A stretch of 64,000 nucleotides of DNA from an uncultured Pseudomonadales bacterium (GCA_964635905.1 CAZWPK010000001.1:224293-288292); one strand, 5' to 3'. Positions 48,840-52,803 are shown, counted from the stretch's first letter. Translations and numbers: made by a program. Notes: generated from the sequence alone by a model not told the origin.

Positions 48840-49736
48840 ATGATCCTACTTTCTGGTTCCTCCAACATCTCCTTGGCTCGAAAGATAGCTGAACACTTGG
48901 GTCAGCCGTTAGGCAGTATCGAGTCCTCTACCTTTGCCAATGGAGAACGACGCGTGTGGGTCAAAGAAGAAGTGAAGGGAAAAGATGTGGCGCTCATTCA
49001 AAGCTTTAGTGAGCCCGTGGATGCGCACATCATTGAATTCTCATTAATTGTGGATGCGCTCTTTCGACTAGGTGCTCGCCGTGTCTTTGCAGTGATCCCT
49101 TGGTTTGGCTACAGTTTGCAAGATAAGTCGTTTCGTCCGGGAGAACCCATTGCCGCCAAGGTCATCGCTACCATGCTAGGCAGTCTCTCCATCTATCGCT
49201 ACATTCTTTTGAATCTACATAACAACAGTAGTGCGGGTTTCTTTCAAAACCCTACGTCTGTACTCTCTTCTGATTCCGTCTTTGAACAAGAGATCAAAGC
49301 GTTAGGGAAGGATACAGTTTTAGTCTCCTCAGACTTTGGCGGCTTAAAGAAGGTGGGACTATTCTCTCAACGCCTGAATCTTCCCTTTGCCAATATTGAT
49401 AAACGACGGGATTTGGCAACAGGACACGTCTTGGCCCATTCCATCTCCGGTGATGTGGAAAACAAAACGGCAGTGATTCTCGATGACATCATTAACTCCG
49501 GCTCCACCGCCATTGAAGCTGCACGGATCGCCCGCGAACGTGGAGCAAAAAAGATTCTAATGCTTGCAACCCATGCGCTTCTGGCAGGTGATGCAAGTCA
49601 ACGACTTCAAGAGAGTGAAATTGATGAAGTCATTGTCACCGATACGGTTGACTCCTCAGCAAAACGATTTCCAAAACTTCGCGTAGTATCGATCTCCCAT
49701 CTGATCGCCGATGAACTAGCGCAATGGTCTAAATAA
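48840..49736 (+). CDS. prs: Ribose-phosphate pyrophosphokinase
   Basis: LLSGSSNISLARKIAEHLG, a PRPP-binding loop ILDDIINSGST. Confidence 0.85.
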   Translation: MILLSGSSNISLARKIAEHLGQPLGSIESSTFANGERRVWVKEEVKGKDVALIQSFSEPVDAHIIEFSLIVDALFRLGARRVFAVIPWFGYSLQDKSFRPGEPIAAKVIATMLGSLSIYRYILLNLHNNSSAGFFQNPTSVLSSDSVFEQEIKALGKDTVLVSSDFGGLKKVGLFSQRLNLPFANIDKRRDLATGHVLAHSISGDVENKTAVILDDIINSGSTAIEAARIARERGAKKILMLATHALLAGDASQRLQESEIDEVIVTDTVDSSAKRFPKLRVVSISHLIADELAQWSK

Positions 49737-49738
49737 CT

Positions 49739-50611
49739 ATGCCATTCTGGAATAAAAAGGATCAACCAGCTGGGCATGATAAACCAAAAAGAAGAGAAAC
49801 TGGGAATACCGACCCCTATCCGATTGAGCAGATTGGAAGTCCGGAATTTCAAGCTCGAGTAAAACGACTCTCAGCGGAGCTTGCCAAGTCACTCAATCAA
49901 AGGGAATGGGCCGCCCAAATCGATAAACACACCACACCAAGTAGTTATCTTACTGCACTCACGAGGGCTCTGTATAACAGTTTGAGTCAGGAAAATGGGA
50001 AAGCTCAAACACACCGAGGAGATCCATTTGCCTATCTTCCCAGTGACGAAAATTCTAGCCCTGGTTCCATGAAAGCGTATTTTCAACTTCGGCCAGAATA
50101 TAAGGCTGCAACGGAGGCAATTGCCACAACGATTCAAACAAGAGTAAGACAACGAGGTTTGCAACTGGAGGGAAAATTCGATCGCTATCCTGACAGTAAC
50201 CGAAGGGATCGAATTGTCTTTTACTTTAACTCAGAAGATCGTGCAACAATCCTTCCGGTGCTTGCAGAGTTGGCAAGTGATTTTGTTGAGGATCCCGGAG
50301 TGTTACGTGACATTTCTCCTCAAGTGATTCCAGGTATTAACTATGCAGTTGATCCGAATGAGATTTGGAACAGCTTTGTATCCAAATGCATCCCCGAAGA
50401 CCAAAAATATGTTTTTTCCTACCGCCGGATGTTTGCATTCTTTTCTGCAACTGAAGTTGCACTGCAGCTCATAAATAGTCGGGGAAAAGATCAGAAATCA
50501 ACGGAGTTGCAGCAATACGTCTCTACTGTTGCCGAAGCAATCAAGGATTTTAATACGGACCCTCAAGGAGCGTACATAAAATTCATGAAGAGGTTGAATC
50601 CTCGTGGCTAG
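49739..50611 (+). CDS. hypothetical protein
   Basis: 290 aa, starting 3 nt after the prs stop, with no recognisable domain. Confidence 0.5.
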   Translation: MPFWNKKDQPAGHDKPKRRETGNTDPYPIEQIGSPEFQARVKRLSAELAKSLNQREWAAQIDKHTTPSSYLTALTRALYNSLSQENGKAQTHRGDPFAYLPSDENSSPGSMKAYFQLRPEYKAATEAIATTIQTRVRQRGLQLEGKFDRYPDSNRRDRIVFYFNSEDRATILPVLAELASDFVEDPGVLRDISPQVIPGINYAVDPNEIWNSFVSKCIPEDQKYVFSYRRMFAFFSATEVALQLINSRGKDQKSTELQQYVSTVAEAIKDFNTDPQGAYIKFMKRLNPRG

Positions 50612-50619
50612 TCGCGTTA

Positions 50620-50836
50620 TGCTATACTTTCAAGTGAATTGCAGCGGAAGAGCACCCAACTCTTCTTCCAGAAATGGAATGCTGATGTGGACATCAAAAG
50701 TACTAACACATCCGGAAGATAGCCGTCATCTATCAGAATCAAGGTCATTGGAGAACCAATGATAAAGAACGGTGGTACCGCGTGAAAACGCCCGTTTGTA
50801 TAGAACAGCTGTTCTGTATGGATGGGTTTTTTTATA
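50620..50836 (+). promoter_or_regulatory. T-box riboswitch leader (candidate proline-specific) with its own extended -10 promoter and intrinsic terminator
   Basis: TGCTATACT 50620-50628. GAAGAG/CTCTTC hairpin with a CACCCAA loop (CCC then A, 50653-50659). Exact T-box core GGTGGTACCGCG at 50771-50782. Terminator helix (50791-50826) followed by seven T residues (50827-50833). The downstream operon ends in proS. Confidence 0.6.
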
Positions 50837-50845
50837 GGAAAAGGT

Positions 50846-51136
50846 ATGACTGCAGAAACATATAGCTTCTCACTAGGTGCAGAAAACTTTCGAATTCCTA
50901 GTACGGTTGGCTACGAAGAACTGCTTTCTACACTAGGGATACAAATTATCGATCTCATCCTTGCCTATGGAAATAACAGCAGCTGGGAAGAACTTGTCCA
51001 GCGGTCAAAAAACGCACGTTTGCGAACAGGACATCAAACACAAGAAGACTTTCGTGCGGATACTATTATGAAAGCATGTAAACAATTATCATTATCACAA
51101 AGTCAGTTTTCAATTAATAAACCGGAGCAACTATGA
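50846..51136 (+). CDS. hypothetical small protein, first gene of the T-box-controlled operon, translationally coupled to proS
   Basis: 96 aa from ATG 50846 (the ORF track starts at 50822 inside the terminator T-run). Its stop overlaps the proS ATG (ATGA). Confidence 0.45.
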   Translation: MTAETYSFSLGAENFRIPSTVGYEELLSTLGIQIIDLILAYGNNSSWEELVQRSKNARLRTGHQTQEDFRADTIMKACKQLSLSQSQFSINKPEQL

Positions 51137-52803
51137 AATATTCAACTCTCTATGGCAAAACGAATAAAAACGATGTGGGTGGTTCCCAATTCATCAGTCA
51201 TCAGCTCCTGACGCGTGCGGGGTTTGTTCAGGAATCCACCGCAGGGAGGTACTACTTCTTGCCGTTAGGCTGGAGAGTTCATGACAAGATCAAAGCGATC
51301 ATCAAGGAAGAAATGGATGCGGTAGGCGGTCAGGAAATGATTACTCCGGTATTACATCCCATTGAGCTATGGGAAGAAACCAACCGAACAACCTCTGTCG
51401 GCTTTGAACTCATGTCCATTCAAGATGCCCGTGGAGCTAAGTTTGCACTAGGTGGAACAGCGGAAGAAATGTTTGTTGATTCCGTGCGCAAACTGCAGCT
51501 CTCATATCGTGATCTTCCTCTAAACCTGTACCAGTTCTCCACCAAATTCCGTGACGAGAAGCGCGCCCGTGGTGGACTCCTGCGTGTACGAGAATTTGTG
51601 ATGAAAGATGCCTATTCCTTTGACCGTAGCGAAGCAGAGTTTGCCAAAGTCTACGAACAGATGGCCCAAGTATATAGTCGCATCTTTTCTAAAATTGGAC
51701 TCTCAACCCTTAAAGTCGAAGCCGACAACGGTTACATTGGGGGAGAGTACTGTCACGAGTACCAAGTCGAATCCGCAATCGGAGAAGGACGATTTTTTGT
51801 GAGCCAAGATGGAAGCTATGTCGCCCATGAGGATGTCGCCAAGTTTAAGCGGGATGAGAAAAATGTGACGGACGACTTGAAAGACTATCAAGAAATTGAT
51901 GCCGTACGTGGAAACACCATGGAAGATGGGGTCGCTCTGCACGGACTCCCACTCTGGCAACAGATGAAAGATGTCATGATGGTCAACGAGGCAGGGAAGT
52001 TGATCCTGGCTGTGATTCGAGGTGACTATGATGTCAATGAAACCAAGCTTGCTCATGTTACGAATTCGTTCCACTTGCGACCGGCTACCGTTGAAGAAAT
52101 TCGTGCCATCGGCTCTGAACCTGGCTTCATCTCTCCGCATGGATTATCGGGGAAAGCGATCATCGTAGGCGATCTGTCGCTTCGAACCGTACGCAACATG
52201 TATGGAGGAGCGAACGCAAAACACAAAGATGCACTCAACTTGAACATCGACCGTGATTACACCGTCGATATTGAAGCGGATATTGTCATGTGTGCGAATG
52301 GCTACACTTCTGAATCTGGAAGTGTGTTGGAAGAAAAACGGGGAATTGAAGTCGGAAATATTTTCCAGCTAGGATACCACTACTCCTCCAAAATGACCGG
52401 AGCGACATTTACCGATGAAGATGGTTCCAAGAAGCCCTACTACATGGGCTGTTATGGAATTGGTTTGGGCAGAACCTTAGCGACTGTGGTCGAAAAACAT
52501 CATGATGACAAGGGCATTGTCTGGCCGAGTGCCATTGCACCCTATCAAGTGCATTTAGTAGATATCCAATCCAAAGAGCGTGGGCAAGAAATCTACGCAT
52601 CCTTGTGCCAGGCTGGCATAGAAGTGTTGTGGGATGATCGAGATGTCCGTGCAGGAGAAAAATTTGCTGACGCTGATTTGATCGGAATCCCTGTACGACT
52701 CGTTGTCTCCAATAAAACTGGGGAAAAATTAGAATGGAAGCGACGTAGCGAAAATGAATCAATATTGCTAGATCTATCTGAAGTGATTGGGAAACTGTTG
52801 TAA
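51133..52803 (+). CDS. proS: Prolyl-tRNA synthetase (bacterial type)
   Basis: Class II motifs (FRDEKRARGGLLRVREF, GGEYCHEYQV) and the N-terminal ISHQLLTRAGFV typical of bacterial ProRS. Confidence 0.9.
   Translation: MKYSTLYGKTNKNDVGGSQFISHQLLTRAGFVQESTAGRYYFLPLGWRVHDKIKAIIKEEMDAVGGQEMITPVLHPIELWEETNRTTSVGFELMSIQDARGAKFALGGTAEEMFVDSVRKLQLSYRDLPLNLYQFSTKFRDEKRARGGLLRVREFVMKDAYSFDRSEAEFAKVYEQMAQVYSRIFSKIGLSTLKVEADNGYIGGEYCHEYQVESAIGEGRFFVSQDGSYVAHEDVAKFKRDEKNVTDDLKDYQEIDAVRGNTMEDGVALHGLPLWQQMKDVMMVNEAGKLILAVIRGDYDVNETKLAHVTNSFHLRPATVEEIRAIGSEPGFISPHGLSGKAIIVGDLSLRTVRNMYGGANAKHKDALNLNIDRDYTVDIEADIVMCANGYTSESGSVLEEKRGIEVGNIFQLGYHYSSKMTGATFTDEDGSKKPYYMGCYGIGLGRTLATVVEKHHDDKGIVWPSAIAPYQVHLVDIQSKERGQEIYASLCQAGIEVLWDDRDVRAGEKFADADLIGIPVRLVVSNKTGEKLEWKRRSENESILLDLSEVIGKLL

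Follow-up and report, generated by a model that had tools for sequence, protein, structure and literature searches.

A putative proline-specific T-box leader with an ultrashort Stem I and an intrinsic terminator upstream of a small ORF and proS

T-boxes are a model system for the recognition of one folded RNA by another. The locus described here raises the question of whether the leader of a prolyl-tRNA synthetase gene (proS), contained in a 64,000-nucleotide stretch of DNA (hereafter the window), is a T-box, which tRNA it would sense, and how it would do so with a Stem I reduced to little more than a hairpin. We consider it probable (about 0.85) that the leader is a tRNA-Pro-responsive T-box attenuating transcription of a small ORF and proS through a minimal decoding module. 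All the features listed in the earlier note were found at the positions given there, and its interpretation is largely borne out. The features on which this reading is based are listed in Table 1.

Table 1. Positions of the leader elements and genes in the window
Feature	Position	Strand	Remarks
Extended -10 promoter	50620..50628	+	TGCTATACT, read from the sequence; putative function; no recognisable -35
Stem I equivalent, three-way junction	50642..50684	+	folds so alone, -14.9 kcal/mol
P1, CAGC/GCUG	50642-45 with 50681-84	+	slips register in relatives
P2, GAAGAG/CUCUUC	50647-52 with 50660-65	+	100% paired in all members; 4 sequence versions
Specifier loop, CACCCAA	50653..50659	+	fully unpaired in ensemble
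P3 hairpin, UUCCA-GAAA-UGGAA	50666-79	+	A-U to U-A compensatory changes
Stem II, AUGUG/CACAU	50685..50711	+	17-nt loop containing AGUA; aligned to RF00230 Stem II region
Stem IIA, CGG/CCG	50713-15 with 50723-25	+
IIB pseudoknot, GAUAG/CUAUC	50718-22 with 50730-34	+	covariation
Stem III, GUCAUUGG-AGAA-CCAAUGAU	50744..50763	+	folding
T-box sequence and antiterminator	50767..50797	+	RF00230 alignment; folds alone
Helices A1 (ACGG/CCGU) and A2 (GCGU-GAAA-ACGC)	within 50767-50797	+	both covary
Antiterminator 7-nt bulge, UGGUACC	50773-79	+	UGGU (50773-76) placed to pair with tRNA 3' ACCA
Intrinsic terminator	50790..50833	+	17-bp stem (50790-50827) and U7 (50827-33); terminator scan
Ribosome-binding site	50836-50844	+	AGGAAAAGG, ahead of small ORF
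Small ORF, 96 aa	50846..51136	+	first regulated gene; conserved ORF in syntenic relatives
proS	51133..52803	+	bacterial-type prolyl-tRNA synthetase with inserted editing domain; Pfam PF00587, PF04073, PF03129

The operon and its promoter

The operon of a small ORF and proS that the earlier note had proposed was found as described, with the stop codon of the ORF overlapping the proS start (ATGA) and with three Pfam domains (class II core, editing and anticodon-binding) matched in the deduced synthetase, a member of whose protein cluster is named proline--tRNA ligase (Candidatus Woesebacteria bacterium). The ATG at 50846 was assigned as the start of the first gene instead of the in-frame ATG at 50822, because the latter sits inside the terminator. 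This upstream ATG, within the terminator stem, lengthens the small ORF in mechanical ORF lists, and in the related locus L167 (158-514) the 118-aa product of the gene caller reads through the terminator and is an annotation artefact.

Homologues of the small ORF occur in the same gene order with 89% aa identity in L161, a Candidatus Woesebacteria MAG, and 54% in L162/L163, where the ProRS is 95% identical; the small ORF is thus much faster evolving than proS. No Pfam match was obtained for it, and an HMM search of 1.8 billion representatives gave no function and a lineage-restricted family of 5 members. The AlphaFold model is confident (pLDDT 83) and consists of a beta-hairpin and three helices, with no PDB match in a fold search. 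On comparison, the small ORF proved to be neither an ornithine cyclodeaminase remnant nor kin of the ORFs inserted at the same place in L097 and L087.

Upstream of the leader lie prs (48840-49736) and a 290-aa ORF (49739-50611) with no Pfam match, which is syntenic in L162 but has little sequence conservation (53% nt). ARAGORN detected neither tRNA nor tmRNA genes in the 64-kb window, and no tRNA-Pro gene was found in any locus of the window lineage, the sole one among the loci belonging to an unrelated actinobacterial MAG.

The extended -10 element read in the earlier note (TGCTATACT) holds up on comparison, as sequence conservation between the window and L162 begins there. Its TG-N-TATACT form is kept in L161, L162 and L168, which are all the variants reaching that far, and -10 or -35/-10 motifs occur at the same spacing to Stem I in L010, L011, L013, L097, L005, L083 and L094. 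From its position, transcription would start near 50634-50637, approximately 7 nt past the element. Over the locus, identity to L162 amounts to 95% aa for ProRS, 84% nt for the leader (from TGnTATACT to the U-run), 65% nt for the small ORF, 53% nt for the upstream ORF, and 16% nt for the 60 nt preceding the promoter.

T-box core and expression platform

The 12-mer GGTGGTACCGCG, given in the earlier note as an exact T-box core, is present at 50771-50782 and is the only match in the window at no more than 1 mismatch (0.14 expected by chance). The conserved T-box sequence (...GGUGGUACCGCG) was aligned to the Rfam T-box model RF00230 with high posterior probability. An Rfam scan of the 64-kb window in gathering mode gave no match; under E-value reporting, RF00230 was the only credible Rfam match in the window, with 37 bits versus a gathering score of 93. 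Hence the cmscan check proposed earlier succeeded in terms of E-value (1e-6 when 501 nt were searched, 1.3e-4 over the whole window) but failed the curated threshold. The score is low because the long Stem I is absent: the alignment is good over the 3' two-thirds of the leader, comprising the antiterminator and Stems II, IIA and III, while the 76 positions standing for distal Stem I in the covariance model were skipped by a local end spanning 71 nt. Leaders of the short-Stem-I proline family described below score 26-49 bits, as compared with 92.2 and 70.4 bits for the canonical proS leaders L071 and L022. Since both of the latter are also below 93 bits, the curated threshold misses some ordinary T-boxes too; the Rfam gathering threshold and standard annotation miss the short-Stem-I proline T-boxes. 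The two canonical proS T-boxes are located at 2672-2854 in L071 (Clostridium) and 2736-2959 in L022 (a Chloroflexota MAG).

Compared with shuffled sequences, the leader has a more stable fold (z = -3.7). Following Stem I, the window Stem II carries a loop (GAC...AGUA) that aligns to GAA...AGUA of RF00230; the AGUA is lost in L162 and L167, and in most relatives the loop is only a pentaloop. Stem II is paired in 11/11 tabulated leaders, which have 9 sequence versions of it with changes on both sides in 5/5 columns. The IIB pseudoknot occurs in 7 covarying versions (GAUAG/CUAUC, GACAG/CUGUU, AUUGUU/AACAAU, UCUCA/UGAGA, GUCA/UGAC, GGAUA/UAUCC and GUCGG/CCGAU), the strands of which pair 100% with their own partners versus 44% when swapped between sequences. 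Stem III is 100% paired in five variants of the window subfamily, a G.U pair being changed to A-U and a C-G pair to U.G in L167. Stem II, IIA/B and Stem III are paired in all tabulated members.

Folded alone, the antiterminator adopts the canonical shape ACGG-UGGUACC-GCGU-GAAA-ACGC-CCGU, and its helices A1 and A2 covary across the family (e.g. GUCC/GGGC and ACGA/UCGU). The terminator proposed in the earlier note, a helix followed by a run of seven T, was confirmed as a stem of 17 pairs at 50790-50827 with the T run at 50827-50833; five variants show 100% pairing of this stem, two pairs having changed in a compensatory manner. Folding, which had been suggested as a check, gave -9.4 kcal/mol for the antiterminator and -22.1 kcal/mol for the terminator, both within the TBDB ranges for transcriptional T-boxes. 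As the 3' strand of the antiterminator (50790-97) is reused by the 5' arm of the terminator, the two structures are mutually exclusive. The terminator does not include the Shine-Dalgarno (SD) sequence at 50836-44, which is 83-98% unpaired in the ensemble and mostly so even in the terminator state. This indicates that the expression platform is transcriptional and makes SD sequestration unlikely. A stem and U-run upstream of the SD sequence were also found in 13/13 relatives.

From this arrangement we infer the following mode of action. Transcription would start about 7 nt after the extended -10 element, and the nascent RNA would fold the short Stem I, of which the P2 hairpin would present a proline codon (CCA or, in the neighbouring register, CCC) and a purine in its 7-nt loop; Stem II and then the IIA/B pseudoknot would fold thereafter. 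The anticodon of tRNA-Pro could pair with the P2 terminal loop and, if the tRNA is uncharged, its 3' ACCA with the UGGU of the antiterminator bulge. The antiterminator would then be held by the tRNA, allowing RNA polymerase to read into the small ORF and proS; with the tRNA charged or absent, the more stable terminator would form and transcription would stop. By analogy with the actinobacterial ileS T-boxes (see below), Stem II and the IIA/B pseudoknot may supply the affinity that is missing without a distal Stem I platform.

Specifier hairpin and related leaders

Relatives of the leader were sought with the ProRS protein in genome and metagenome collections. The closest ProRS relatives, 47-69% identical, are from organisms resembling the Candidate Phyla Radiation (CPR)/Patescibacteria, and 13 further distinct leaders of the same build were recovered (L161, L162, L167, L168, L087, L013, L010, L011, L084, L097, L005, L083 and L094). 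Their common order of elements is as follows: AGC, a short hairpin with a 6-7-nt loop, and GCU-G; a short Stem II; CGG/CCG of IIA with IIB; a variable region; Stem III; AAGG/ACGG-UGGUAC(C/A); helix A2; and a terminator with a U-run. The family is small and consists mostly of metagenome bins with unreliable taxon labels. Three leaders with helix A2 starting with GUCC (L005, L083 and L094) and one with the bulge UGGUACA (L087) were found by a looser pattern and a covariance model.

A MAFFT alignment of six divergent leaders was unusable in the variable middle; a manual modular alignment of 11 of the 14 leaders, checked by script, was used instead, and L087, L167 and L168 were inspected separately and follow the same scheme. 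Over the 11 tabulated leaders, every helix is 97-100% paired with strands from one and the same sequence, versus 44-62% for strands swapped between sequences in P2, Stem II, IIB and A2, and most columns of these four helices show changes on both sides. For five close variants aligned by MAFFT, an alignment not fitted to structure, the ON-state fold is 91% paired versus 35-57% in slid controls; this alignment gives only 64% for IIB, the 3' strand of which is misplaced at a 4-nt indel, while the manual register pairs fully. From the decoding module, pruned to 57 nt, a covariance model was built. Besides its seed members it retrieved L097, which lay outside the seed, and one new member, L087; it missed L013, which has a large 3' insertion, and no match with an E value of 1 or less emerged from distant proS loci totalling 586 kb. 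Because the alignment by this model has local ends across P2 in some matches, it was left out of the pair counts. Folding, the significant RF00230 match and covariation support the assignment of the leader as a proline T-box, together with its promoter and the competition between terminator and antiterminator.

In the window, the specifier hairpin (GAAGAG-CACCCAA-CTCTTC, 50647-50665) forms one arm of a three-way junction. The closing helix P1 slips register in relatives (UGC/GCA in L161, L167 and L168) and is 60% paired in the five-variant alignment. The loop of P3 varies (GAAA, AAAA, UAAAA and UAUCU), so that a specific tertiary contact by P3 is unlikely. The window Stem I has no GA/K-turn motif, no AG bulge/distal-loop platform (IDTM) and no internal specifier loop; its junction consists of a single G (or AGCG) on the 5' side and of P3 and a U on the 3' side, with no tandem G.A. 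A GA (K-turn) motif is kept at the base of Stem I in L010, L011, L013 and L094, and the K-turn is replaced by the three-way junction in the window lineage. Some relatives have extra Stem I hairpins, located on the 3' strand by the GA motif in L094 (1143-1232), L083 (1091-1173) and L013 (2750-2830), and within the Stem I 5' bulge in L084 (1083-1140) and L005 (1662-1720).

Aligned from the 3' end, the terminal loops are CAC-CCA-A in the window subfamily (invariant in its five variants), CUC-CCA-A in L087, UUC-CCC-G in L010 and L011, UAU-CCC-G in L013, L005 and L083, UUU-CCC-G in L094, UU-CCC-G in L097, and CUU-CCU-A in L084. All 14 leaders have CC at positions 4 and 5 and a purine at position 7, next to the stem, with A, C or U between them at position 6. 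Such a pattern is expected of a CCN proline specifier held in a fixed register ahead of a conserved purine, and the family loops mirror the specifier loops of the canonical L071 and L022 (GAA-CCA-G and GAA-CCG-G). The family register points to CCA (50656-58) with A50659 as the window specifier, and thereby to tRNA-Pro(UGG); we favour it modestly over CCC (50655-57) with A50658. As both are proline codons, the specifier is proline in either register. Thus, of the CCC-A loop described in the earlier note, the 7-nt loop and the proline specifier stand, and the register is the part that may need revision; the placement of the specifier in a hairpin loop instead of an internal loop is corroborated by the same build in the 13 homologous leaders. 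The specifier agrees with the genes controlled, CCN and a purine being found in all 14 leaders and the cargo being proS or an ornithine cyclodeaminase gene (ocd) with proS. The anti-discriminator position is U in every family member (U50776 in the window) as well as in L022 and L071; bacterial tRNA-Pro typically has A73, which would pair with this U.

Alternative readings and relation to known T-boxes

Three other explanations of the leader were weighed. One possibility is a canonical T-box transcribed from further upstream, its long Stem I beginning within the upstream ORF near 50582 and including a K-turn (UUCAUGAAGAGG...CUUCCAGAAA). Indeed, in the cmscan alignment model positions 1-18 fall on 50576-50593, with UGA...AGA paired in the manner of a K-turn, and no terminator was found between the upstream ORF and the promoter, so that read-through transcripts could include this region. 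However, with the 76 distal positions skipped, no specifier internal loop, AG bulge or distal loop is aligned, and the pairing would destroy the invariant P2 hairpin. In addition, the counterpart of 50560-50619 in L162/L163 is unrelated (16%), in contrast to the conserved leader from TGnTATACT onward, and in L162 the same model begins Stem I within the leader. With conservation beginning at the promoter, the Rfam placement of Stem I at 50582 was ruled out, and a long Stem I is extremely unlikely. A translational T-box similar to those of actinobacterial ileS, in which the tRNA would free the ribosome-binding site without termination control, has in its favour that the Stem I architecture matches a class described as translational. 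It is very unlikely in view of the 17-bp, GC-anchored stem directly before U7, which is the signature of an intrinsic terminator, of the SD sequence lying outside the helix and largely unpaired, and of the stem and U-run preceding the SD sequence in the relatives too.

The absence of the K-turn and the elbow platform, the low RF00230 score and the reduced nature of CPR genomes would also fit a decayed relic, the truncated Stem I of which no longer binds tRNA, so that a constitutive terminator merely attenuates the upstream operon. Yet the specifier hairpin and its loop show no change beside flanking genes that have diverged to 53-65% nt identity, compensatory changes maintain the helices, the element has its own conserved promoter, and lineages with ProRS proteins only 47-67% identical have kept both the CCN-purine loop and the UGGU bulge; decay is therefore very unlikely. 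What speaks against the preferred reading of a functional transcriptional T-box is that the window lacks both the K-turn and the platform, the latter being called essential for transcriptional T-boxes in PMC7583486, that the score is far below gathering, that P1 is weak, and that a Stem II S-turn is not evident.

The leader shares with canonical transcriptional T-boxes the T-box sequence, an antiterminator with a UGGN bulge opposed to an intrinsic terminator, Stem III, Stem II and IIA/B, a specifier codon followed by a purine, and control of the cognate aminoacyl-tRNA synthetase gene. Unlike them, the family has no long Stem I, no S-turn internal specifier loop and no AG bulge/distal-loop platform, and the window lineage has no K-turn. 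The core and expression platform are those of a canonical transcriptional T-box, and the closest known class is that of the ultrashort (US) Stem I T-boxes. In PMC7583486, PMC10651847 and 10.1101/2023.02.28.530422, this class is described as actinobacterial, controlling only ileS, translationally and in response to tRNA-Ile; it is credited there to Sherwood, Grundy & Henkin 2015, its structures are from Mycobacterium and Nocardia, and a Stem II S-turn and the IIA/B pseudoknot are stated to compensate for the missing elbow contact. According to PMC7583486, fast capture of tRNA by transcriptional T-boxes generally depends on the long Stem I platform, a short Stem I is tolerated only where regulation is translational and not time-limited, and insertions in helix A2 are common in translational T-boxes with a short Stem I.

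The proline family resembles the US class in i) the specifier located in the terminal loop of a short Stem I (7 nt on a 6-bp stem in the window), ii) the lack of an elbow platform, Stem II and the IIA/B pseudoknot following directly, and iii) A2 insertions in some members, of 30 nt in L013 (2900-2930) and 15 nt in L097 (2108-2125). It differs in several respects. The US class is described as translational, with an SD sequestrator, whereas the proline family has an intrinsic terminator (with U7 and an accessible SD sequence in the window). The former, actinobacterial, is described as restricted to ileS and tRNA-Ile, whereas the window, with a Woesebacteria-like CPR host, has a proline specifier and proS. 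Most family members have a much shorter Stem II (5 bp and a pentaloop), and where some relatives have a K-turn at the base of Stem I, the window has a three-way junction. A K-turn elaborated into a three-way junction is known as a k-junction and has been described for TPP riboswitches. The hairpins of L094, L083 and L013 on the 3' strand at the GA motif recall this arrangement, and P3 of the window is at the same position; since the window has no tandem G.A signature, the likeness is topological only.

Full-text literature searches found no T-boxes in Patescibacteria/CPR, and the combination of an ultrashort Stem I with a terminator is not described in the searchable literature, in which the US class was compared through secondary descriptions. 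A T-box ahead of proS is of a known kind; a terminator-type, proline-specific one with an ultrashort Stem I in CPR appears to be new, with a function predicted from the sequence comparisons above. The odds are slightly in favour of the broader proposal that CPR bacteria carry a distinct class of T-boxes sensing tRNA-Pro co-transcriptionally with a module of about 60-90 nt that has no elbow platform and, in some cases, no K-turn. If so, the distal Stem I platform would not be a general requirement for terminator-type T-boxes, and the union of an ultrashort Stem I with an intrinsic terminator would provide a natural test of the kinetic argument based on fast tRNA capture. It would also extend the T-box mechanism to the CPR bacteria, in which regulation is almost unexplored, and offer a very small tRNA-sensing transcriptional switch of use for engineering.

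Every member of the family precedes proS, or a gene for ornithine cyclodeaminase, a proline-forming enzyme, and proS. The latter arrangement, in which the cyclodeaminase (PF02423, E=3e-91) is followed by proS, was found in L084 (1458-2480), L094 (1460-2479), L005 (1940-2950) and L083 (1396-2415), and suggests riboswitch-controlled synthesis of proline from ornithine in some reduced CPR-like organisms, a group usually credited with little amino-acid biosynthesis. In L097 (2175-2444, 89 aa) and L087 (1781-2488, 235 aa), unrelated ORFs with no Pfam match are located between the T-box and proS, and in L010, L011 and L013 nothing lies between them. The slot just downstream of the riboswitch thus seems to acquire varied cargo.
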